Below, piece after piece: positions 2,525 to 36,655 of a stretch of 64,000 nucleotides of DNA (the first letter of the stretch is position 1; every line of letters begins with the position of its first letter). The notes beneath the pieces are model-generated. The model was given only the letters and a program-made list of their open reading frames with translations. It ran no database searches and was not told where the DNA came from. The position numbers and the translations under genes are program-made. This DNA comes from a virus (taxonomy: Duplodnaviria > Caudoviricetes): positions 32,001-96,000 of IMG/VR virus record IMGVR_UViG_2828164553_000001; one strand, written 5' to 3'.

Positions 2525-2600
2525 TGGTGGGCCGTCAAGGATTCGAACCTTGGACCTATTGATTAAGAGTCAACTGCTCTACCAACTGAGCTAACGGCCC
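2525..2600 (-). tRNA. tRNA-Lys(CTT)
   Basis: Reverse complement GGGCCGTTAGCTCAGTTGGTAGAGCAGTTGACTCTTAATCAATAGGTCCAAGGTTCGAATCCTTGACGGCCCACCA; 76 nt with CCA end. Confidence 0.97.
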
Positions 2601-2741: not shown

Positions 2742-2833
2742 CGCCCTAGCCCGTAAGCATACAACGTTTTCTCGGATTTGTGACGCCGCGGGTGACGTAA
2801 AGATGACATCCGTGGCGTCACAGGTGACGCGCC

Positions 2834-2851
2834 AATTAGTCGGGGCTATAG
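2834..2851 (+). promoter_or_regulatory. Putative phage-RNAP promoter upstream of the RNAP gene
   Basis: AATTAGTCGGGGCTATA|G has T7-like geometry (17 nt, then +1 G) and matches 15833..15850 at 16 of 18 positions. Confidence 0.7.
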
Positions 2852-2907
2852 ACCAAACGAACTCTAAGTGGGGAGGAAGCACTCCTCCCCTCTACGCCAA
2901 GACAGTT

Positions 2908-2923
2908 ATCCCACATATGGGAT
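2908..2923. promoter_or_regulatory. Palindromic operator inside a possible sigma70 promoter (AAGACA-18-TATGAT)
   Basis: ATCCCACATATGGGAT; the motif recurs several times in this prophage. Confidence 0.7.
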
Positions 2924-3033
2924 ATGATCCGACCTCACTATAGAGGAGCCACTTATAGCTCTCTTCCAGTCCTACCGGAGATGCGCTTCAAGTGACATTT
3001 CCGGCCGTGCCGGTTTCAACTGTTCAGCCAATA

Positions 3034-3060
3034 CCTCCGCCTTCGGGCGGGGGCGTTTTT
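3034..3060 (+). terminator. Intrinsic terminator/attenuator just before the RNAP gene
   Basis: CCTCCGCC-TTCG-GGCGGGGG followed by a T-tract. Confidence 0.65.
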
Positions 3061-3101
3061 CGTTTGCCCATTCAATCTCAACTTCGGGACGCATTCCTAA
3101 T

Positions 3102-5522
3102 ATGCAATCTACCGCCCAGACGCTCCATGACCGCCAGCTCCAGCTGGAGTCCGAATCAACCTCCCTCGGCATTGCCCGCTACGAGAAGGCCCGCGCCAAT
3201 TCCGACGAGGCTGACACCGGCCCCGGCAAGAAGCTGGTCATGCAGGCGGTCGCGGCCACCGGCCAAGCCATCCGTGAGTTTGTCGAGAAGGCCAAACAGG
3301 GCGGCGGTGGCCGGAGACACACGGCGGTGAAGTGGCTGGAGCATCTCGACCCCGAGGGCTGCGCCTACCTAACTGCAGTGGTATGCGTGAACGCCCTGGC
3401 TGGTGAGCAGGCCAAGTTGACCGCCGTTGCGCGCTCTGTCGGCTCTGCCATCGCACAGGACGTGAACTACAAGAAGCTGCGGGACAACCACGCAGGCCTC
3501 TATCGAGTAATCCAGCAGCAGCTCAAGAAATCCACCTCCGCGCATCACTCGACCGGAGTGATGAACCACGCCCTCGCCAAGACCGAAACCGAAATGTTCG
3601 TGTTCACGCCGGACGAAGAGGCTCTGGTCGGCATGAAGCTGATCGACCTCTTCATCGAGGCGTCTGGACTGGCCGAAATCATCCTGACCAGACCCCGCCA
3701 GAACCAAACCGTCGCGATCCTGCAGGGCACCGCAGCGATCCGCGAGTGGCTCGCCAAGGCACACGAGAGCGCCTCGATGTTCCTGCCCGTGTGGATGCCC
3801 ATGCTGGTCCCACCCAAGGACTGGACGACACCCCGCGACGGCGGCTACCTCACCGACATCGGCGGGAGAGCGGACCTCGTGCGTACGCGCAACCGCGCCT
3901 ACAAGCGGGAGCTGGAGCAGGCCGACATGCCCAACGTCTACCGGGCGGTCAACCTCATCCAATCCACCCCCTGGAAAATCAACAAACCAATCCTGGAGGT
4001 GATGCAGGACGCATGGGCCGTGGGCGGCGGCTTTGCTGACCTTCCCGACCGCGACCTCTTGGAACTTCCAGAGCAGCCCGCCTTGCTGGTCAGCGATCCC
4101 GAGTTCTACAAGGAGCACCATGCCGATGAATTCAAGGCATGGAAGCGCAGCCGCGCCGAGGTCTACGAGGAGAACGCCCGCGGCACCTCCCGCCGCCTTT
4201 CGGCTGCACAGAAGATCGCTCTGGCCGAAAAGTTCAAAGACGAGGCGGCAATCTATTTCCCGCACAACCTGGACTTCCGCGGGCGTGTGTACCCTATTCC
4301 CTCAATCCTTACCCCACAGGGCGACGACCAAGCCAAGGCTCTGCTGACCCTGGCTGAAGGCGTGCCGCTGGGAGAGGATGGCGCGTTCTGGTTGGCAGTC
4401 CATGTCGCCAACTGCTTTGGCGTCGATAAGGTCGCCTTCGCAGAGCGCGTGTCCTGGGTGAGAGCAAATGAGGAGATGATCCTCGACTCCGCGCTTAACC
4501 CGCTCGACGGCCAGCGGGCCTGGTCCAATGCCGATTCGCCCTTTTGCGCCCTCGCCGCTTGCTTCGAGTGGCTGGGCTACTCAATCAACGGTAACGAGCA
4601 CATGTCACACCTGCCGGTCGCCCTGGACGGCTCTTGCAACGGCCTGCAGAACTTCTCGGCGATGCTCCGAGATTCCGTCGGCGGCGCAGCGACCAATCTT
4701 TTGCCGCAGGACAAGCCGGCCGACATCTACACAGCCGTGATGGACGTGGCCGCCGTGCGTGTAAGGGCAGAAGCAGAGGCAGGCAACGCTTGCGCTTTGT
4801 TCTGGGATGGCGCATTGACCCGCGGCATCGTCAAACAGCCGGTGATGACACTTCCTTACGGCGTCACCAAGTCCGGCATGCGCGGCCAAGTGCAGGCCAA
4901 CGCCAAAAAGGAGGGACTCTCGCCCTCCAACGAGCAGGCCGCTTACCTCGGCGACATTCTCTGGGACTGCATCGGCGAAGTCGTGGTGGCCGCGCGCCAA
5001 GCGATGGACTGGCTGAAGGAAGCATCGAAGGTCGCATCGGCGTCCGACCTCCCAATCGCGTGGACGACGCCGGCAGGCTTTCCTGTACTGCAGGAGTATC
5101 GGGAGGACCTCGGCAAGCGCGTCACGACGCACATCGGGGGAAAGCGCGTCGAATTAATCGTGGCTATGGACGGGAGCAAACTTGACCGCCGCCGCCAGGG
5201 TCTCGGCATCTCCCCCAACTTTGTTCACTCCTGTGATGCGAGCCACCTGATGCTGACCACCTGTCTCGCGTCAGACAACGGGATCACTAGCTTCGCGATG
5301 ATTCACGACTCCTACGGAATGCATGCCGGAAACACCGGAATCCTTGCCGCCTCGTTGCGTCACGCCTTTATTGAGCAGTACGAAAGCGACGTGCTGGGTA
5401 ACTTCAGAACCGAACTGGCCGAACAACTCCCGATAAAAAACGCTGCTGACCTTCCGAAGATTCCTCCCTTCGGTGACCTGGACCTCTCCGAAGTGTTGGA
5501 GAGCAGCTATTTCTTTGCCTAA
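3102..5522 (+). CDS. T7-like single-subunit DNA-directed RNA polymerase (gp1)
   Basis: Motifs LDFRGRVY, LDGSCNGLQ, RGIVKQPVMTLPYG, PNFVHSCDA, IHDSY and C-terminal YFFA. Confidence 0.98.
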   Translation: MQSTAQTLHDRQLQLESESTSLGIARYEKARANSDEADTGPGKKLVMQAVAATGQAIREFVEKAKQGGGGRRHTAVKWLEHLDPEGCAYLTAVVCVNALAGEQAKLTAVARSVGSAIAQDVNYKKLRDNHAGLYRVIQQQLKKSTSAHHSTGVMNHALAKTETEMFVFTPDEEALVGMKLIDLFIEASGLAEIILTRPRQNQTVAILQGTAAIREWLAKAHESASMFLPVWMPMLVPPKDWTTPRDGGYLTDIGGRADLVRTRNRAYKRELEQADMPNVYRAVNLIQSTPWKINKPILEVMQDAWAVGGGFADLPDRDLLELPEQPALLVSDPEFYKEHHADEFKAWKRSRAEVYEENARGTSRRLSAAQKIALAEKFKDEAAIYFPHNLDFRGRVYPIPSILTPQGDDQAKALLTLAEGVPLGEDGAFWLAVHVANCFGVDKVAFAERVSWVRANEEMILDSALNPLDGQRAWSNADSPFCALAACFEWLGYSINGNEHMSHLPVALDGSCNGLQNFSAMLRDSVGGAATNLLPQDKPADIYTAVMDVAAVRVRAEAEAGNACALFWDGALTRGIVKQPVMTLPYGVTKSGMRGQVQANAKKEGLSPSNEQAAYLGDILWDCIGEVVVAARQAMDWLKEASKVASASDLPIAWTTPAGFPVLQEYREDLGKRVTTHIGGKRVELIVAMDGSKLDRRRQGLGISPNFVHSCDASHLMLTTCLASDNGITSFAMIHDSYGMHAGNTGILAASLRHAFIEQYESDVLGNFRTELAEQLPIKNAADLPKIPPFGDLDLSEVLESSYFFA

Positions 5523-5525
5523 TAC

Positions 5526-5541
5526 ATCCCACATTTGGGAT
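5526..5541. promoter_or_regulatory. Palindromic operator immediately after the RNAP stop codon
   Basis: ATCCCACATTTGGGAT. Confidence 0.7.
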
Positions 5542-5564
5542 TAATCCCGAGAAAGGAACAAATC

Positions 5565-5699
5565 ATGAGCATCAATTTCAACGCAAGTCTCGGCACCTAC
5601 GTCGCACTGGATGCCTACGGCCAGGTCCTCGCGATCTACAGCCCGTCCGCTCACGGAACGGTCGAGGAGTTCCGCAACGAGATGGGCCGGGCTGAGTGA
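5565..5699 (+). CDS. Small hypothetical protein (44 aa)
   Basis: AAGGA RBS; MSINFNASLGTYVALDAYGQVLAIY...; GTGA overlap with the next gene. Confidence 0.6.
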   Translation: MSINFNASLGTYVALDAYGQVLAIYSPSAHGTVEEFRNEMGRAE

Positions 5700-5986
5700 T
5701 CGAGCCTCGCCTCCGCTCGCACGTATTGCACTCCCGAAGCGCGCATGCAGCCTCCCGCGGCGCCTTCGCAGCACTCAGCGGCGTGCAAATGGTCGAGCAC
5801 CCCGCGGACCAGCTCATTGGGCTGGCCTGCGCTTTTCGATTCACCGCTGAGGAGTGCGGGTATGACCCGCTTTCACTCCTGGCACTCACCGAACGCATGG
5901 AAGCGGACTGCCGCTTCCGTGAACTCAACACCCTGTCGGCCGTCCGCAAGTACGCCCAGGAAGAACTGGCGAAGAAGCTCCCATGA
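5696..5986 (+). CDS. Phage hypothetical protein
   Basis: Translationally coupled at both ends. Confidence 0.65.
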   Translation: MIEPRLRSHVLHSRSAHAASRGAFAALSGVQMVEHPADQLIGLACAFRFTAEECGYDPLSLLALTERMEADCRFRELNTLSAVRKYAQEELAKKLP

Positions 5987-6132
5987 CACGCGAAATCGAA
6001 CGGCTGCTGGAACAGGCCGCCTTGGAAAACGAACTGTATGGAGCGGTTTTCGCCTCCACCGATGCCCGCCTTATCGAAGCCGGCTACCTCCCCGAAGAAT
6101 CAGAATTCCATGACCCAGAAGAAAGCGAATAA
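5983..6132 (+). CDS. Small acidic hypothetical protein (49 aa)
   Basis: ATGA overlap; MTREIERLLEQAALENELYGAVFASTDARLIEAGY... Confidence 0.55.
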   Translation: MTREIERLLEQAALENELYGAVFASTDARLIEAGYLPEESEFHDPEESE

Positions 6133-6787
6133 GCGATACGTGTCCCCGGCCGGTGCCGCCATCTGGCCGCGGCTGAATGCCCCCGACACCAAGTACAACG
6201 CGGACGGCGAGTTCTCCGCCAAGCTCGCGATGGAAGAGTCAGACGCCGACACCCAGGCGTTCATCAAGAAGCTGACCGCAATCCGCGACGAAGCCTTTGA
6301 GCAGTTCAAATCCGAGAACCCGAAACATAAGAAGGCCGCACTGGCGGACTTCTTCGCTTCGGAAACGGACGACGAGGGTGACGAAACTGGCAGGGTTACG
6401 TTCAACTTCAAGATGAAGCACAAGATCAAGGCGAAGAAGACCGGCAAGGTCTACACAATGGTTCCGACCATCGTGAACTCCAAGAAGGAAGTGCTGAAGA
6501 ATCCGCCGAACATTGGCGGCGGCAGCCTTCTCAAGGTGAGCTTCGAGGCCGTCCCCTACTTCGCGGCGGCGGACAAGAAGTTTGGCATTTCGCTGCGCAT
6601 GGTCGGCGTCCAGATCATCAAGCTGGTCGAGTTCGGCGGCGCCAGCCGTGCAGCCGACGACTTCGATGAGGAGGATGGCGACGACATCGCAGACGGCGCA
6701 GATCGTCCGAGCGATGACGACGACTCCGATGATTCGGAAGACGACAGCGACAGCGACGGAGATGATGGCGACGACGGCGACTACTAA
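6110..6787 (+). CDS. T7 gp2.5-like single-stranded DNA-binding protein
   Basis: WPRLNAPD, IGGGSLLKVSF, GISLRMVGVQIIKLVEF and a very acidic tail ending in an aromatic residue. Confidence 0.92.
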   Translation: MTQKKANKRYVSPAGAAIWPRLNAPDTKYNADGEFSAKLAMEESDADTQAFIKKLTAIRDEAFEQFKSENPKHKKAALADFFASETDDEGDETGRVTFNFKMKHKIKAKKTGKVYTMVPTIVNSKKEVLKNPPNIGGGSLLKVSFEAVPYFAAADKKFGISLRMVGVQIIKLVEFGGASRAADDFDEEDGDDIADGADRPSDDDDSDDSEDDSDSDGDDGDDGDY

Positions 6788-7268
6788 GCCCTCGTCCAAG
6801 GTCACGAAGGGGGCGGCGCTTGCCGCCTCTTTCATTTTTTCCATAGACCCCGTTCCGGCTTCTCGCCCCCGCGTTACGCGCTGGGGCACGTACCACCTGA
6901 AGACCTACAAGACCTGGCTTGAAGCGGCAGGCAAGTACCTCAAGGGCCTATCCCACGTCGCAGGACACGGCATCCGCCCGGATACGCCACTGATCGTTGT
7001 CGCCGAGTTCGTCTGCCGAAAGCCCAAGACGACCAAGCTGTTGACGCCGAAGGGCGACATCGACAACTACCTGAAAGCCCCGCTGGACGCGATTACACAC
7101 GCCGGCCTGTGGGGCGACGACAAGTGGATCACCACCGTCGTCGCAACCAAGCGATTCCAGGAACCCGGCGAAGAGCCGCACACCGCGTTGTCAGTGTACG
7201 AAGCTCCGCGCGAGAGCCTGTTCAATCAACTCACTCAGTTCATCCGGGGGATCTTCCGGTGCGACTGA
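6765..7268 (+). CDS. rusA: RusA-family Holliday junction resolvase
   Basis: PVPASRPR and DIDNYLKAPLDAI...WGDD motifs; GGAGA RBS. Confidence 0.85.
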   Translation: MATTATTKPSSKVTKGAALAASFIFSIDPVPASRPRVTRWGTYHLKTYKTWLEAAGKYLKGLSHVAGHGIRPDTPLIVVAEFVCRKPKTTKLLTPKGDIDNYLKAPLDAITHAGLWGDDKWITTVVATKRFQEPGEEPHTALSVYEAPRESLFNQLTQFIRGIFRCD

Positions 7269-7630
7269 AAAAGATGGCCAACCCTGACCAGCTGTTCGTA
7301 ACCGCCTCAATGACGCGGCCGGACCACTCTGTCACTGGCGCCGAACTGGCGCGCATCCACCGCTCGCAGGGCTTCTCCAAGATCGCAGTCCACTACGTCA
7401 TCGAGCGCGACGGAACCGTCTTCGACGGCCGCGGTTTGGACGAGCCGGGCTGCTTGGCCGCGCGCGCAAACGACCGATCGATCCAGGCGTGTCTGGTCGG
7501 CGGTGTCGATGACGCCCTGACACCAACCAACAACTTTTCCAAGCAACAGCGAATGGCGCTGCGGCGAGTCGTGCGTAAGCACGGTCTTCCCGTGGTGTTC
7601 GACCGCGTGTGCCCACTACAGGAAATCTAG
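7259..7630 (+). CDS. T7 lysozyme (gp3.5) homologue, catalytically degenerate
   Basis: HYVIERDGTV...GR and SIQACLVGGVDD...NFSKQQ align with T7 gp3.5, but the Zn-ligand His residues and catalytic Tyr are missing. Confidence 0.85.
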   Translation: MRLKKMANPDQLFVTASMTRPDHSVTGAELARIHRSQGFSKIAVHYVIERDGTVFDGRGLDEPGCLAARANDRSIQACLVGGVDDALTPTNNFSKQQRMALRRVVRKHGLPVVFDRVCPLQEI

Positions 7631-7632
7631 CA

Positions 7633-8013
7633 ATGAAACTGTCCCGTCAAGCCAACCTGATCGTCGATCACCTCTACAACAACCAGCACATCACCTCGTG
7701 GCAGGCTGAGGGCGTCTACCGCGTCCGCCGCCTGGCGTCGCGCATTACCGAACTGAATCGTGCCGGCTACGACATCCGCAAGGAGCGTTGCGAAGACGCG
7801 ACGGGGCAGTCCTACACGCGCTACTCCTTCACCCGAGCGCAAAAGCGTCGCAGCACGCCGGTGCACCCGCAGACCCCCGAGCAGCCGCGCTTTCTGCTGG
7901 ATCGCCTGATCGACCTTTACCGCACCTACTGCGCGAAGGAACTGGGCCTGGGTGGCGATGACCTGGACACCGAGACCGAAGACTTCCGCCGCTTCCTCCA
8001 GGAGGCCAAGTAA
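7633..8013 (+). CDS. Winged helix-turn-helix DNA-binding protein
   Basis: ITSWQAEGVYRVRRLASRITELNRAGYDI pattern. Confidence 0.7.
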   Translation: MKLSRQANLIVDHLYNNQHITSWQAEGVYRVRRLASRITELNRAGYDIRKERCEDATGQSYTRYSFTRAQKRRSTPVHPQTPEQPRFLLDRLIDLYRTYCAKELGLGGDDLDTETEDFRRFLQEAK

Positions 8014-8183
8014 TGGAAAAGGTTCAATCCGCAATGCGCCTCGCCTTCGCAAACGCCACCAAAAACGTGCTGAAGGAAGAACGCGAGCGTACCTACGCGA
8101 TGGTCCGTTCGGCTTCCAACCGCCAACTGGGCGTGACCCACCGCAAGACCATGTGGTCGGTCGAGCGTGTCAGCCGACGCTGA
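8013..8183 (+). CDS. Small hypothetical protein (56 aa)
   Basis: GGAGG RBS; TAATG overlap. Confidence 0.55.
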   Translation: MEKVQSAMRLAFANATKNVLKEERERTYAMVRSASNRQLGVTHRKTMWSVERVSRR

Positions 8184-9801
8184 GTCTCAGTTCGTCGCCA
8201 AAGAGCCGTGCCCGAAGTGTGGTAGTCGCGACAACCTCGCGCGCTACGACGACGGGCACGGCTTCTGCTTCGGGTGCTCCCACTATGAGCCGGCAGATGG
8301 TGACGCCACACGCACGCAATCAAGGCCCCGCATGTCCGACGACTTTGCTCAGGGCGAAGCATCCGCCCTGGCCGCTCGCGGTCTGCAGGAAGAAACCTGT
8401 CGCAAGTTCTCCTATTGGGTAGGAAAGAACAAAGACGGCAAAACCTGCCAGATCGCCAACTACCGCCGCGACGGTCGCACCGTCGCTCAAAAACTCCGAT
8501 TCAAAGATAAGAAGTTCGCCTTCCTAGGCGACACCAAGGAAGCAGGACTGTTCGGCCAGCACCTCTGGCAACCCACGCGGCGATTAGTCATCACCGAAGG
8601 TGAAATCGACTGCCTTAGCGTGGCGCAAGTTCTCGGCCTGAAGTGGCCCGTAGTGTCAGTCCCGAACGGTGCGCAGGGCGCAGCCAAGGCCATCAAGCGT
8701 GAACTGGAGTGGGTCGAAAAGTTCGACGAAGTGGTCATCATGTTCGACATGGATGAGCCAGGCCAGACAGCCGCTCAGGAGGTCGCTGAAATCCTTTCGC
8801 CGGGCAAGGCACGCATCGCGCAGCTGCCGCTGAAAGATCCCAACGCGATGCTCCAAGCGGGCAACGGCGAAGCCATCGTCTCGTGCATCTACGAAGCTCA
8901 GACAGTTCGTCCAGACGGCATCGTGACCTTCGGCTCAGTACGCGAAAAAGCGCTGGCGCCAGTGGTCGTAGGGATGCCTTGGCCGTGGCCTGACCTGACC
9001 AACTACACGCTTGGACGACGCTACGGCGAAATCTATGGCCTGGGCGCAGGCACGGGCATGGGCAAGTCCGATGTGTTCGACGAAATCATCGTGTTCACGG
9101 CGACCACCTGCAACGAGAAGTGCGGCGTCCTCAAGCTGGAACAGCCACCTGCGGAAACCGCAAAGCGCCTGGCTGGCAAGTACGCATCCCGCCGCTTCCA
9201 TGTGCCCGACGCAGGCTGGACACAACAGGAGTTAGAAGACGCGTTCGACATCCTGGACAGCACCGGCAACGTCGTTCTTTACGACCACTTCGGCACCACC
9301 GACTGGGATGTCATCGCCTCCAAGATGCGGCACATGGCAGTTGCAGATGGCGTCAAACATATCTTCCTAGACCATCTGACGGCGCTCGCGGCCGACGCTG
9401 AGGACGAGAAGAAAGTGTTGGAACAGGTGATGGCTGCACTCGCCAAGTTGGCGATGGAGCTGAGCGTCTGCATCTACTTCATCTCGCACCTTACGACTCC
9501 CGAGAAGGGATCGCCCCACGAGGAAGGCGGGCGCGTGACCATCCGCCAGTTCAAGGGCAGTCGCGCTATTGGCTTCTGGTCGCACTTCATGTTCGGTCTG
9601 GAGCGCGATCAACAGGCGGCAGACATCTCCGTTCGCACCACAACGACTCTCCGCGTGCTCAAGGACCGCTACACCGGTCAAGCCGCGGGCAAGTGCATCT
9701 ACCTCCGCTACGACGAGCAAACCGGGCGACTCGTGCCATGCGCAGATCCCTACGCGGACAGCGGTGACGAGAGCTACGACGAAACACCGGGCGGCTATTG
9801 A
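8167..9801 (+). CDS. T7 gp4-like DNA primase/helicase
   Basis: Cys4 zinc finger, TOPRIM motifs EGEIDCLS and FDMD, Walker A GTGMGKS, FLDHL, LKDRYTG. Confidence 0.96.
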   Translation: MSADAESQFVAKEPCPKCGSRDNLARYDDGHGFCFGCSHYEPADGDATRTQSRPRMSDDFAQGEASALAARGLQEETCRKFSYWVGKNKDGKTCQIANYRRDGRTVAQKLRFKDKKFAFLGDTKEAGLFGQHLWQPTRRLVITEGEIDCLSVAQVLGLKWPVVSVPNGAQGAAKAIKRELEWVEKFDEVVIMFDMDEPGQTAAQEVAEILSPGKARIAQLPLKDPNAMLQAGNGEAIVSCIYEAQTVRPDGIVTFGSVREKALAPVVVGMPWPWPDLTNYTLGRRYGEIYGLGAGTGMGKSDVFDEIIVFTATTCNEKCGVLKLEQPPAETAKRLAGKYASRRFHVPDAGWTQQELEDAFDILDSTGNVVLYDHFGTTDWDVIASKMRHMAVADGVKHIFLDHLTALAADAEDEKKVLEQVMAALAKLAMELSVCIYFISHLTTPEKGSPHEEGGRVTIRQFKGSRAIGFWSHFMFGLERDQQAADISVRTTTTLRVLKDRYTGQAAGKCIYLRYDEQTGRLVPCADPYADSGDESYDETPGGY

Positions 9802-9833
9802 GCCGCATCCCATCTCATCCAAGGAACAACCGC

Positions 9834-10079
9834 ATGACCCTCAAGACCACACTGCTGGCAATCCACGCCTTCCTAACTCCGGCCCCGAGCGTTGACGCCA
9901 TCTGCGCTGACCTGGATCGCACCCTGGGCAAACTGGACGCAGCCGAAGGAAAGCTGCGCGACCGCGCTGCAATCGCCGAAGCAAAGGCTGCCAAGTTGGT
10001 ACAGGAAGCCGTCGGCCACCGCTCGCGCGCCTTGCGTGCCGGTCGGGTCGCCAGTCGTATCAAGGCCATCATCGAATGA
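9834..10079 (+). CDS. Phage hypothetical coiled-coil protein
   Basis: AAGGA RBS before ATG 9834; ATGA coupling. Confidence 0.65.
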   Translation: MTLKTTLLAIHAFLTPAPSVDAICADLDRTLGKLDAAEGKLRDRAAIAEAKAAKLVQEAVGHRSRALRAGRVASRIKAIIE

Positions 10080-10696
10080 GCTACGGCGCCTACATCAAGG
10101 GCATCTTTCTGGACATGCCGGCCGCCGCACGCATCGTCTCCATCCTCGGTGGCGGCGCCCTGCGCTCGTTCTATGACGGCACTGCCGCCAAAGACTACGA
10201 CTTGTTCTTCCGTTCCTATCAGGACTACCTCGTTGCCTTCGCTGCGTTCGCGGACCAGGGCAACCGGTACAGGGAGCTGGCAGCGCCCAACGGCACCTCT
10301 CAGTTCCACGACCTGAGCACCGGCCGTCTCTTCAACTTGGTCGGCTTCCACTTCGACACGCCGCACGGCCATCGGGATGCATTCGATTTCCGCTGTTGCA
10401 TGTTCGTGGCGTGGCTGGAATTCAACCTTCCGACCACATCAGCGCACCCCGATGCTCCTGCAGACGCCGCGGCGAAGCGTCTCGTTGTGATGAACAACAA
10501 CGGCGACGAACGTACTTATGCTCGGATGCACCGCTACCGGGACTACGGCTACCGCCTCGACTTGGGTCTTGGTGAGGAACTCATCAAGCAGCCGGGTGAC
10601 GTTCCCCTGCCAAGTTTCGAGCGCGTCAAGCAGATCCTCAAAAGCTACCCCAAGGCAGCACGAGGAGTAGGCTCCGATGGCCTGGCTCGTCTTTGA
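10076..10696 (+). CDS. Nucleotidyltransferase (PolyA/CCA-head-like)
   Basis: GGGALR...KDYDLFF and FDF motifs. Confidence 0.7.
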   Translation: MSYGAYIKGIFLDMPAAARIVSILGGGALRSFYDGTAAKDYDLFFRSYQDYLVAFAAFADQGNRYRELAAPNGTSQFHDLSTGRLFNLVGFHFDTPHGHRDAFDFRCCMFVAWLEFNLPTTSAHPDAPADAAAKRLVVMNNNGDERTYARMHRYRDYGYRLDLGLGEELIKQPGDVPLPSFERVKQILKSYPKAARGVGSDGLARL

Positions 10697-12590
10697 CATT
10701 GAGACCAACGGCCTACTCGACGAACTGACCACTATTCACTGCATCTCCCTCCAGGAAGTAACTCCGGAGGGAGTACCTGTGAGTGCTGTGCTCTCAGCCA
10801 ACCGCGTGAATGGGGAGCTGACCATCGAGCAGGCCTTGGAAATGCTTCAGGGCGCGGATGCCGTGGTCGGCCACAACATCGTCAACTTCGACGTGCCTAC
10901 CATCCGCAAGCTGTACCCGAAGTTCAAGATCAAGCGCGCACTGGACACGATGTTGCTGTCCACACTTCTTTGGCCTGACCTCCGCGACCGCGACTTCAAC
11001 TTCGCCAAGAAGAACCCCGGCAAGTTGCCAGGCCAGTTCATCGGCCGGCATTCGCTGGAGTCTTGGGGCTACCGCTTGGGCGAATGGAAGGGCGACTACT
11101 CCGCCGTGATGAAGGCCAAGGGCCTCGACCCGTGGGCTGAGTGGAATCAGGAGATGGACGACTACTGCGACCAGGACGTACGCGTCACGCAGAAGCTCTT
11201 CGCCCTCCAGATGACCAAGGGCCTGTCGCAAGAAGCGATTGACCTGGAGCACGGCATCGCACCCATCCTCCAGCGTCAAACCGCCTATGGCTTCCTGTTC
11301 GATCAGAAGAAGGCCGACAAGTTGCAACGCGAATTCATGGTCACAAAGGCCAGGCTCACAGACGAGCTGACCCGTGTGTTTCAGCCCTGGCGCGAGAGCC
11401 TCGGCATGTTCGTCCCGAAGGTCAACAACGCCAAGCTCGGCTACGTCAAAGGGGTACCACACGAGAAGTTTAAGTCCTACGTCTTCAATGCCGGCTCTCG
11501 CGATCACATCGCAAAGCGCCTGAAGGCCCTGCACGGGTGGAAGCCCGCTGTGTTCACGCCGGAGGGTCGCCCAAAGATCGACGAAGAGACCCTTGCGCAC
11601 CTCAAGTACCCCGAAATTCCCATGCTGTTGCGCTACCTGACTGTGGCGAAGCGCGCCGGGCAACTTTCCGAACCTCCGCCGAAGCTCAAGAAGGACGGCA
11701 CCCCAAGCAAGTCGAAGAAGAAATCCGAAGCCTGGATCACTCAGGTTAAGAAGGATGGACGCATCCACGGGCGGGTGAATCAGAACGCAGCGGTCACCGG
11801 GCGCATGACGCACTCGGGACCGAACATGGCACAGGTCCCCAAGGTCCAGAAGTGCAACGAGGGGATTCTCTTCGGCGAGGCAGGTGGCTGGGGCTATGAG
11901 TGCCGCGAGCTGTTCACCGTGCCCAAGGGCAAGAAGCTGGTGGGCGCCGACGCCTCGGGCCTGGAGCTGCGCTGCCTGGCGCACTTCATGGCCGCCTTCG
12001 ACGGCGGCGCCTACGCGACCGTACTGCTGGAAGGCGACATCCACGCCGAGAACCAGAACGCAGCCGGCCTGCCGTCGCGCGACAACGCGAAGACCTTCAT
12101 CTACGCCTTCCTCTATGGGGCCGGCGACGAGAAGATCGGGTCGATCATCGGGAAGGGCCGCAAACACGGCAAGGCGCTTAAGGAGAAGTTCCTCCAGGGT
12201 CTTCCAGCGCTCGCCAAACTGGTCAATGGCGTCAAGAAGCGCGCCAAGGCGAAGGGCTATCTCATCGGCCTGGACGGTCGGAAGCTGCACATCCGCAGCG
12301 ACCACGCTGCACTCAACACGCTCCTGCAGTCCGCAGGCGCGCTGGTCATGAAGAAGGGACTGCACATCCTGGACGTGCGCCTGCAGGAAGCCGGCCTTGC
12401 GCCGGGAGTGAACTACGAGTTCGTCGGCAACATCCACGACGAGTGGCAGATCGAGGTGGACGAGAAACATGCCGAGTTCGTCGGACGGTCAGCGGTCGCT
12501 TCGATCCGTGCGGCAGGCGATTACTTCGGCTTTCGCTGCCCACTCGATGGCGAATACAAGATCGGCAACAACTGGGCTGAAACCCACTGA
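10677..12590 (+). CDS. T7 gp5-like family A DNA polymerase
   Basis: Exonuclease motifs FDIET, GHNIVNFD, YCDQDV; polymerase motifs DASGLELR, KTFIYAFLYG, HDE. Confidence 0.97.
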   Translation: MAWLVFDIETNGLLDELTTIHCISLQEVTPEGVPVSAVLSANRVNGELTIEQALEMLQGADAVVGHNIVNFDVPTIRKLYPKFKIKRALDTMLLSTLLWPDLRDRDFNFAKKNPGKLPGQFIGRHSLESWGYRLGEWKGDYSAVMKAKGLDPWAEWNQEMDDYCDQDVRVTQKLFALQMTKGLSQEAIDLEHGIAPILQRQTAYGFLFDQKKADKLQREFMVTKARLTDELTRVFQPWRESLGMFVPKVNNAKLGYVKGVPHEKFKSYVFNAGSRDHIAKRLKALHGWKPAVFTPEGRPKIDEETLAHLKYPEIPMLLRYLTVAKRAGQLSEPPPKLKKDGTPSKSKKKSEAWITQVKKDGRIHGRVNQNAAVTGRMTHSGPNMAQVPKVQKCNEGILFGEAGGWGYECRELFTVPKGKKLVGADASGLELRCLAHFMAAFDGGAYATVLLEGDIHAENQNAAGLPSRDNAKTFIYAFLYGAGDEKIGSIIGKGRKHGKALKEKFLQGLPALAKLVNGVKKRAKAKGYLIGLDGRKLHIRSDHAALNTLLQSAGALVMKKGLHILDVRLQEAGLAPGVNYEFVGNIHDEWQIEVDEKHAEFVGRSAVASIRAAGDYFGFRCPLDGEYKIGNNWAETH

Positions 12591-15304: not shown

Positions 15305-15838
15305 ATGAAGATCGTCGGCATCTCCGGCAAGGCTGGCTCTGGCAAGGACACCCTCGCCGGTTTTCTTGTCGAGCATCAAGGCTTCGTCCGTATCGCGCTA
15401 GCCGAACCATTGCGCCGCTTTGTGTCGGACATCACCGGCCTGAGCATGGAGGACCTGACCGCAGGCCCCCTGAAAGAAGCACCGCTCGACTGGCTGGGTG
15501 GTACTTCCCCCCGCCGCCTCATGCAGACCATCGGCACCGAATGGGGTCGAGACATGATCGACGAGAGCCTTTGGCTCAAAGTCGCCGCCCGCCGCGTTGA
15601 GGAGGCCCGTGCTTTCGGTGCTGCTGGTGTCGTCATTCCTGACGTACGTTTCGAGAATGAAGCGATGCTGGTGCGAGAACTGGGCGGCAGCGTGGTCGTC
15701 GTGGATCGACCGGGCGTCGCCTCAGTCGCAGACCATGCAAGTGAACGCCCCCTGCCCTCCGGGCTGGTGGACCACACCGTGGTCAATAGCGGGACGCTGG
15801 CGCAGCTTCGAGCGGCTGCGCAGGAATTGGCGAATTAG
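15305..15838 (+). CDS. Deoxynucleoside monophosphate kinase
   Basis: GKAGSGKDT P-loop, PRRLMQTIGTEWGR, DVRFENE, HASE. Confidence 0.88.
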   Translation: MKIVGISGKAGSGKDTLAGFLVEHQGFVRIALAEPLRRFVSDITGLSMEDLTAGPLKEAPLDWLGGTSPRRLMQTIGTEWGRDMIDESLWLKVAARRVEEARAFGAAGVVIPDVRFENEAMLVRELGGSVVVVDRPGVASVADHASERPLPSGLVDHTVVNSGTLAQLRAAAQELAN

Positions 15839-15881
15839 TCGGGCCTCTAGAGGGAAAACCCACGGTTTTCCCCTTTCTAGA
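15833..15881 (+). promoter_or_regulatory. Putative late phage-RNAP promoter with T7 phi10-like 5' hairpin
   Basis: AATTAGTCGGGCCTCTA|G followed by GAGGGAAAACC-CAC-GGTTTTCCCCTTTCTAGA, ahead of the virion module. Confidence 0.75.
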
Positions 15882-33375: not shown

Positions 33376-33839
33376 TGAGTGGCTGGCTTATCAAATGGGG
33401 CGGTGCATATCGACAGCCGTGGATAGTGCGCCTCAAATGGGGCGGCGCGTGGATCAATCCAGCTGCCGTTCGCCTCAGATGGGGCGGCGGCTGGGTGACC
33501 GTCTACACCGCCTACACCCCACTCTCCAGCAATGCCACTGGAAGCTCCGCTCAGTACAACAACGGCAATAGCCGCACACCTATGACCCGGCAGCTAGGAG
33601 CGCGCGCGACTGTCTACACCGCAGGAGGGAACGGGAACCTCACGTACTCCTGGTTCGTGAGCAGCTCTAGCCAAGTGTCGAATGTATCGCTTGGCCCATC
33701 TGGGCCGTACTGCGATGTAAATGTCACCGCCACTCTAAACCAAAGCGGAAGCGTCACCGTGGGATGCACCGTCACTGACGGACAGAGCAGCACCACCGCC
33801 TACGCGACGACTCGCTATGACTACTACAACACCGTCTAA
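33375..33839 (+). CDS. Tail-fibre tip adhesin-like protein
   Basis: TAATG overlap; three (K/R)WGG(A/G)(Y/W) repeats, then a Ser/Thr-rich Ig-like beta domain. Confidence 0.6.
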   Translation: MSGWLIKWGGAYRQPWIVRLKWGGAWINPAAVRLRWGGGWVTVYTAYTPLSSNATGSSAQYNNGNSRTPMTRQLGARATVYTAGGNGNLTYSWFVSSSSQVSNVSLGPSGPYCDVNVTATLNQSGSVTVGCTVTDGQSSTTAYATTRYDYYNTV

Positions 33840-34119
33840 GGACTCATTGAACAAAGAAGAACTTACGCTCCTCGGCACCCTAGGTGCTGTCGGAGCGCTG
33901 ATCGGCATCGCAAAGCTGCTGGTCTCCGATGAACCCCTCAAGCCTCGCCAGGTCATCGGCCGTGCACTACTGCACGCCGGTCTGGGCGTTGCCTCAGCCG
34001 CAATCCTTGTGCTGATCCCCGGCTTGGGCACTGCCGCAATCGTCGGCATCGCCTGTGTGTTCTCCTCGCTCGGCACTTCCGCACTGGAAGCGGCCTTCAA
34101 CAAGTACCTGAAGAAGTGA
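33817..34119 (+). CDS. Holin
   Basis: Multiple TM segments, basic C-terminus, gp17.5 position. Confidence 0.75.
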   Translation: MTTTTPSKDSLNKEELTLLGTLGAVGALIGIAKLLVSDEPLKPRQVIGRALLHAGLGVASAAILVLIPGLGTAAIVGIACVFSSLGTSALEAAFNKYLKK

Positions 34120-36053: not shown

Positions 36054-36209
36054 ATGACCGAGTTTTTAATCACTGCCGCCGTCTTCCTGGCGTTCGGCCT
36101 GTTTATCCGTAACCGCATCCGCAAGGCCAAGGCAGCGTCCGCATCTTCGGCCGGCGCACCTGTCGGCGGCGGCTCCACTGGCACCAAGCCGCACACGCAG
36201 GTTCGTTGA
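36054..36209 (+). CDS. Small single-TM protein
   Basis: AAGGA RBS; MTEFLITAAVFLAFGLFIRNRIRK. Confidence 0.6.
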   Translation: MTEFLITAAVFLAFGLFIRNRIRKAKAASASSAGAPVGGGSTGTKPHTQVR

Positions 36210-36655
36210 GCGAATCCATCCGCATCGCAACCCCGCTCACCAAGGTGAGCGAGGGTTTGCGCCTTCGGGCATATGTGTGCCCGGCCGGCAAGCTAACTAT
36301 CGGATGGGGCCACACCGGCACCGACGTGAAGCCAAGTATGACGATCACCCCGGAGCGCGCTGAGCAGCTCCTGGAGGCCGACTTAAAGCGCGCCCTGGCA
36401 GGCGTAAGGGAGCACGTGCGCGTGCCTCTCAAAGCGCACCAGGAGGCCGCTCTCGTGGATTTCGTATTCAATCTGGGCGCAGAGCGGCTACGCACATCTA
36501 CCCTGCTGCGTCTGCTGAACTCTGGAAACTACACGGCAGTGTCCGCACAGCTGACCCGCTGGGTGTATGGCACGGTCAACGGAAAGAGCCGCAAGCTGCC
36601 CGGGCTGATCACCCGACGCGCCGCGAACGTGGCGATGTGGGAAACCAATTCTTGA
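36206..36655 (+). CDS. Endolysin (GH24 lysozyme)
   Basis: EG.RL.AY.CPAG..TIGWGHT catalytic motif, FNLG, GLITRR. Confidence 0.92.
   Translation: MSESIRIATPLTKVSEGLRLRAYVCPAGKLTIGWGHTGTDVKPSMTITPERAEQLLEADLKRALAGVREHVRVPLKAHQEAALVDFVFNLGAERLRTSTLLRLLNSGNYTAVSAQLTRWVYGTVNGKSRKLPGLITRRAANVAMWETNS

Follow-up and report, generated by a model that had tools for sequence, protein, structure and literature searches.

T7 lysozyme (gp3.5) is a bifunctional protein that acts both as an amidase and as an inhibitor of T7 RNA polymerase (RNAP), the latter through the C-terminal 'foot' of the polymerase, and this inhibition underlies the pLysS, LysY, and Lemo expression strains. Its N-terminal arm is reportedly dispensable for amidase activity and needed for RNAP inhibition, based on a residue 2-5 deletion mutant in work attributed to Cheng et al. 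1994, with which the length of 1LBA (146 residues) agrees. Residues 2-52 have been described as the RNAP-interaction domain, with binding away from the active site (PMC5445346). In addition, T7 lysozyme carrying the K128Y substitution has no amidase activity and displays full inhibition of T7 RNAP (PMC5732464). As this substitution separates the two functions, losing catalysis while keeping regulation is a demonstrated possibility. Indeed, the engineered LysY (K128Y, Lemo21(DE3)) is an amidase-negative lysozyme whose sole use is the inhibition of RNAP (PMC5732464), which is the state proposed below for a natural phage protein. Temperate T7-like phages, such as Caulobacter phage S2B and Pseudomonas phage LUZ100, possess an integrase, an RNAP, and a lysozyme-like gene too, and T7-like prophages are already known in Xanthomonas and relatives (PMC9145550). 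The lysozyme-like protein of S2B, encoded directly downstream of a RusA gene, keeps the motifs HCSAT, GYH, GHRD, and KEC and looks catalytically complete, as does that of LUZ100, which has been described as T7-lysozyme-like (E 3e-36).

The stretch of DNA analysed here, further referred to as the window, is a 64,000-nucleotide part of a provirus record in IMG/VR; the phage integrated in it is T7-like. The following features were located in it:

900-2087, tyrosine integrase
2525-2600, minus strand, tRNA-Lys
2834-2852, plus strand, phage-promoter-like 19-mer upstream of the RNAP gene
3102-5522, plus strand, single-subunit T7-type RNAP of 806 aa, the presumed target (PHROG 414, 1.3e-255; 36% identity to T7 RNAP)
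5152-5170, plus strand, weaker copy of the 19-mer with three mismatches, within the RNAP gene close to its 3' end and upstream of the gp3.5-like module
6038-6787, plus strand, gp2.5-like ssDNA-binding protein (SSB; PHROG 112, 2.5e-40)
6582-7268, plus strand, RusA-type Holliday-junction resolvase, in place of T7 gene 3 (PF05866, 1.6e-15)
7247-7252, plus strand, Shine-Dalgarno-like GGGGGA, read from the sequence, 6 nt before the GTG of the gp3.5-like ORF
7259-7630, plus strand, gp3.5-like protein of 123 aa with a T7-lysozyme (Amidase_2) fold, without His17, Tyr46, His122, and Lys128, and with Cys130 kept
7633-8013, plus strand, winged-helix protein (HTH_39, 1.5e-12), directly downstream of the gp3.5-like gene
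8167-9801, plus strand, T7 gp4-like primase-helicase (PHROG 239, 1.6e-186)
10677-12590, DNA polymerase (DNAP)
15833-15851, plus strand, second 19-mer copy of the exact class, preceding the late genes
33817-34119, plus strand, holin (PF04550, 5.2e-12), in the late region, which also encodes the small and large terminase
36206-36655, plus strand, GH24 (T4-lysozyme type) endolysin, a separate lysis enzyme (PF00959, 3.7e-41)

The order of RNAP, SSB, junction resolvase, lysozyme-like protein, primase-helicase, and DNAP in the window is that of the T7 genes 1, 2.5, 3, 3.5, 4, and 5. Hence, the gp3.5-like gene, situated downstream of the RNAP gene and between those for the junction resolvase and the primase-helicase, is the positional orthologue of T7 gene 3.5. 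Its GTG start codon at position 7259, which results in an overlap of 10 nt with the upstream RusA gene, could be fixed because all homologues begin there with the common N-terminus M-[RK]-[LI]-K. The gp3.5-like gene contains, at its end, the ribosome-binding site (AGGAAA) of the winged-helix gene, which accompanies it in most relatives; the winged-helix protein may be a further regulator, occupying the place of T7 gene 3.8. On the plus strand, directly 3' of the SSB gene (6806-6833), there is a strong GC-rich hairpin of 12 bp that precedes a T-run and looks like a terminator or a processing site within the middle operon. Because of this hairpin, the true start of the RusA gene is probably located downstream of position 6833 and not at position 6582. 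Furthermore, four RNA-seq libraries of one study contained a contig of 12.9 kb, about 90% identical to the window, that spans the RNAP-to-replication module (2800-10000). It begins about 90 nt before position 2800, has no indel inside 7259-7630, and carries 138 other letters in place of a 136-nt stretch (2863-3000). Contigs from RNA libraries cannot show transcription, strand, or level, and this contig was not counted as evidence of expression.

Both sequence and fold place the gp3.5-like protein in the Amidase_2/T7-lysozyme superfamily. An earlier note, made from the sequence alone, had claimed a clear similarity to gp3.5 along with a loss of the catalytic machinery, and both claims were borne out. 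Pfam Amidase_2 (PF01510) matched the protein at 3.6e-7 (31 bits, exceeding the cut-off of 26), PHROG 822 ('amidase') at 7e-26, and the T7 lysozyme chain 1ARO_L at 1e-15 in a phmmer search, the latter over residues 2-104, with the part equivalent to T7 residues 2-52 retained and ungapped from residue 2 onwards. An AlphaFold2 model, based on an alignment of 44 family members, reached a pLDDT of 93.9, and its top Foldseek matches were 1LBA (TM 0.86, rmsd 1.3 Å) and then 1ARO_L. Residues were called from alignments with T7 gp3.5 as encoded by NC_001604. In these alignments, His17 is replaced by Thr (FVHCSAT in T7 versus FVTASMT in the window), Tyr46 by Val (VGYHF versus IAVHY), and Lys128 by Arg; the His122-bearing stretch is deleted, as are the C-terminal 20 or so residues of T7 lysozyme, and Cys130-Pro is retained. 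The earlier note had listed the losses of His17, Tyr46, and the His122 segment, with the CP cysteine remaining, and was right in all these details. Consequently, the zinc ligands His17, His122, and Cys130 of T7 lysozyme correspond in the window protein to a Thr, a deletion, and a Cys. Judged from these residues, a protein without two of the three zinc ligands and both catalytic residues, Tyr46 and Lys128, should be unable to cleave peptidoglycan. Thus, the window protein resembles T7 gp3.5 (1LBA; RNAP complex 1ARO) in fold, sequence (33-36% identity), gene position, and the presence of an own single-subunit RNAP, but it is 28 residues shorter as it lacks the His122 loop and the C-terminal tail, its gene type occurs in temperate prophages with a separate endolysin, and its binding to RNAP is a presumed one.

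The window protein is not alone in these losses. A word-indexed search retrieved 19 homologue clusters (51-100% identity), including entries of Xanthomonas tesorieronis and Lysobacter sp. CA199, and scans yielded seven related loci in a genome collection (from Lysobacter, Stenotrophomonas maltophilia, S. sepilia, and uncultured bacteria) and 42 in a viral contig collection. The ORF was intact in 50 of 50 loci, with identities ranging from 39 to 99%, and the gene order RNAP, SSB, RusA, gp3.5-like protein, (winged-helix protein), primase-helicase, and DNAP was kept wherever the flanks reached, down to 39% identity. Position 17 is occupied by T, L, V, C, M, or A in the 50 loci, and never by His; likewise, position 46 is V, C, or A in the clade, and never Tyr. 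Five residues occur at position 130 (C, F, Y, S, and P), the Cys being gone in most members, and the Lys128 position is variable. When 1.84 billion representatives were searched exhaustively with HMMER, the top ten or so clusters were all of this amidase-dead type, and catalytically complete HYHKC proteins followed. In a tree of 139 sequences, 56 dead proteins, all of which miss His17 and Tyr46, formed one clade with an SH-like support of 98, and T7, Caulobacter S2B, and 70 further complete enzymes were found on the opposite side of its branch. This topology would most simply be explained by one ancient loss, followed by long persistence. Members of the dead clade originate from prophages of Xanthomonas, Lysobacter, and Stenotrophomonas and from viral contigs, and carriers are sporadic, as two of the 301 species genomes in the order of one Stenotrophomonas carrier possessed the gene.

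A collection of 50,697 cultured-phage records contained no member of the dead clade, and a megablast search of window positions 3000-12000 against cultured phages gave no match. The best cultured-phage matches to three different clade members were 35-48% identical, and those that were inspected, namely Caulobacter S2B and Ralstonia P-PSG-11, were catalytically complete. Full-text searches, covering few subscription journals, revealed no description of a gp3.5 lineage that is naturally devoid of catalysis, and an earlier mention is possible. The tree of 139 sequences also contained a second small clade of short Amidase_2 proteins (P0031, P0035, P0049, P0075, P0077, P0079, and P0106; support 99). 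Its aligned members, P0031 and P0035, have kept His17, display Tyr or Phe at position 46 and an ASMT or ATMT motif, and are without the segment of His122, Lys128, and Cys130; this clade may represent another, independent amidase-dead lineage.

The persistence of the gene was examined by means of Nei-Gojobori estimates of dN/dS, using DNA from the related loci. The comparisons of the window with its close relatives were as follows:

window versus L012, dN 0.030, dS 0.248, dN/dS 0.12
window versus L013, dN 0.041, dS 0.360, dN/dS 0.11
window versus L015, dN 0.030, dS 0.342, dN/dS 0.09
window versus L016, dN 0.051, dS 0.319, dN/dS 0.16
window versus L017, dN 0.112, dS 0.508, dN/dS 0.22

When pooled (145 pairs, dS 0.15-1.0), the dN/dS of the gp3.5-like gene was 0.34, and with a looser filter (dS 0.1-1.5) it was 0.39 versus 0.26-0.30 for the genes of RNAP, primase-helicase, and DNAP. 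The values of 0.7-0.8 obtained for SSB and RusA were unreliable and remained unused, as their ORFs were cut at HSP starts and were poorly alignable. In addition, 19 positions were invariant among 44 family sequences. The segment matching T7 residues 2-52 was the better conserved one, with a majority fraction of 0.70 versus 0.59 and a dN/dS of 0.31 versus 0.36, which is a small difference. Its N-terminal arm [RK]-[LI]-K, aligning with Phe5-Lys6 of T7, was nearly invariant. The values of 0.09-0.22 for close pairs and 0.34 for the pooled set therefore refute neutral decay, for which the earlier note had suggested a dN/dS check among homologues. Indeed, the idea of a decaying remnant without function, to which the lost catalytic residues and the truncated C-terminus could point, is extremely improbable in view of the ORF being intact in every locus, the dN/dS of 0.09-0.34, the invariant positions, and the confidently predicted fold.

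Lysis can be assigned to other genes. The separate GH24 endolysin that had been noticed at position 36206 was confirmed by its PF00959 match, and an endolysin of this family was encoded in seven of the ten further records, complete or nearly so, that carry the dead gene. The other three were a Lysobacter-type provirus, a Stenotrophomonas-type record, and a record with terminal repeats. In the Lysobacter-type provirus G002, a 163-aa Amidase_2 protein with the full catalytic set (HCAAT, SYH, GHNE, and KACPSFD) is encoded directly after the large terminase (L054:10628-11119, minus strand), and the dead gp3.5-like copy occurs in the same record (L056:1075-1428, minus strand). With a live member of the superfamily in its lysis cassette and a dead one at the gene-3.5 position, this provirus gives the clearest indication that the two functions of T7 lysozyme may have been split between two genes. 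No Pfam-recognisable endolysin was found downstream of the terminase in the relatives G003 and G004. In a Stenotrophomonas-type relative, a protein of PHROG 3108 ('unknown function') is encoded directly after the terminase (L057:7904-8479, minus strand), without a Pfam or PDB sequence match. It contains the motif QESRF...GFWQFE, which presumably resembles a lytic-transglycosylase signature, making the protein a candidate unannotated endolysin. In two relatives, the late region has HslV-family peptidase-like genes at its far end (L057:7126-7578 and L061:667-1134, both on the minus strand; PHROG 1040, 1e-25 to 2e-27).

Taken together, the homology with T7 lysozyme, the proof that its two functions are separable in T7, and the exclusion of decay argue for a regulatory role, and the gp3.5-like protein has probably been retained for binding and damping the phage RNAP, so that the interpretation given in the earlier note is partly supported. 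According to this proposal, a pseudo-enzyme descendant of T7 lysozyme would keep the Amidase_2/PGRP fold and not catalysis, cell-wall hydrolysis having been handed to the dedicated endolysin of the late lysis cassette. It would be made together with the DNA-metabolism genes, transcribed by the phage polymerase, and would bind the single-subunit RNAP away from the active site and damp initiation. In this way, the transcription carried out by the phage RNAP would be subject to negative feedback, and this polymerase seems to have a promoter-like site of its class ahead of its own gene. Three sites of the 19-mer were found versus none expected by chance, and the copy at 5152-5170 might serve the replication module as a promoter of class-II type; a scan of 5400-8300 revealed no sigma-70 promoters. 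These promoter-like 19-mers fit co-transcription of the gp3.5-like and replication genes by the phage RNAP, and hence a negative feedback loop may be envisaged. The T7 interface is not simply transferable to this pair, as 4 of the 17 lysozyme-contact positions of T7 RNAP (taken from PMC5445346) are identical in the window RNAP, roughly the background level at an overall identity of 36%, and as these positions are not specially conserved within the family (0.70 versus 0.65 overall). All 22 family RNAPs end in YFFA (window positions 5519-5522), where T7 RNAP has FAFA; the C-terminal 'foot' does not vary in the family and is different from that of T7.

A selected function may be another one than RNAP inhibition, since purifying selection indicates that there is some function and not which. 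The dead scaffold could have been neofunctionalised as a binder of a different target, such as a host protein, a defence system, or another replication protein, and the clade indeed has invariant residues of its own that are absent from T7 (Met18, Ser40, and Gln76), besides RNAP contact positions that differ from those of T7. Such a change of partner is nevertheless rather unlikely: in all 50 loci the gene occupies the exact gene-3.5 position beside the replication genes driven by RNAP, the region comprising the N-terminal arm and helix 1, with which T7 lysozyme binds RNAP, is the best conserved one, and no fusion or neighbour suggests a different partner. The fold itself brings in a non-catalytic binder of peptidoglycan or muropeptides, acting at lysis or as a sensor in the way of animal PGRPs, as many PGRPs figured in the Foldseek list (TM 0.64-0.73). 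Non-catalytic PGRPs typically lose far fewer catalytic residues than the four of five that are gone here, Cys130 being lost too in most of the clade, and the C-terminal segment with the His122 loop and the last 20 or so residues is deleted. Moreover, the N-terminus MRLKKMANPDQ has no signal peptide, membrane segment, or hydrophobic signal stretch, so the protein must be cytoplasmic. Drosophila PGRP-SA and PGRP-LC are likewise binding proteins of this superfamily that have lost amidase activity, but they are secreted or membrane-bound, have kept the groove, and bind peptidoglycan, whereas the window protein is cytoplasmic, truncated, and phage-encoded. A role in peptidoglycan binding is thus improbable, even with non-catalytic PGRPs being an established class (PMC8124813).

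It is also very improbable that the protein is still an amidase using different catalytic residues. Databases label the homologues as N-acetylmuramoyl-L-alanine amidases, and His34, His45, and Cys78 are invariant in the clade; however, the residues of T7 lysozyme that align with them are likewise His, His, and Cys, and do not serve as zinc ligands. Positions 17 and 130 vary freely, unlike a catalytic site, and one relative carries a complete amidase in addition. The current database annotation of these homologues as active enzymes is therefore probably wrong. A role as a brake on the phage RNAP, which remains the preferred reading, would bring the window protein close to LysY; yet, the latter is the product of a single laboratory substitution, whereas the window protein is part of an ancient, naturally occurring clade in which the entire active site has been taken apart, and it would act on an RNAP that is only 36% identical to T7 RNAP.

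Judged from the residues and their distribution, the gp3.5-like clade is a naturally occurring pseudo-enzyme form of a bifunctional protein that is already known. As its enzymatic half has been dismantled while the gene has stayed under selection, it would amount to an evolutionary separation-of-function experiment, pointing out the residues on which the non-enzymatic role depends. It may also be a source of orthogonal RNAP-inhibitor pairs for synthetic biology, with polymerases that are about 36% identical to T7 RNAP. Temperance alone does not explain the loss of the amidase, because the lysozymes of S2B and LUZ100, both temperate T7-like phages, still look catalytically complete. A more speculative and somewhat doubtful idea is that of a natural counterpart of pLysS/LysY, namely a harmless, lysis-incompetent RNAP sponge that would buffer leaky prophage RNAP and set the threshold of the lytic switch, or else of a scaffold re-aimed at a new target. 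If the former were true, the amidase would have been lost by selection, since a lysogen is put at risk by an active amidase in its cytoplasm, and the dead lysozyme would make lysogeny possible for a phage with a self-activating RNAP. The clade also bears on how temperate T7-like phages may hold back a self-amplifying RNAP.
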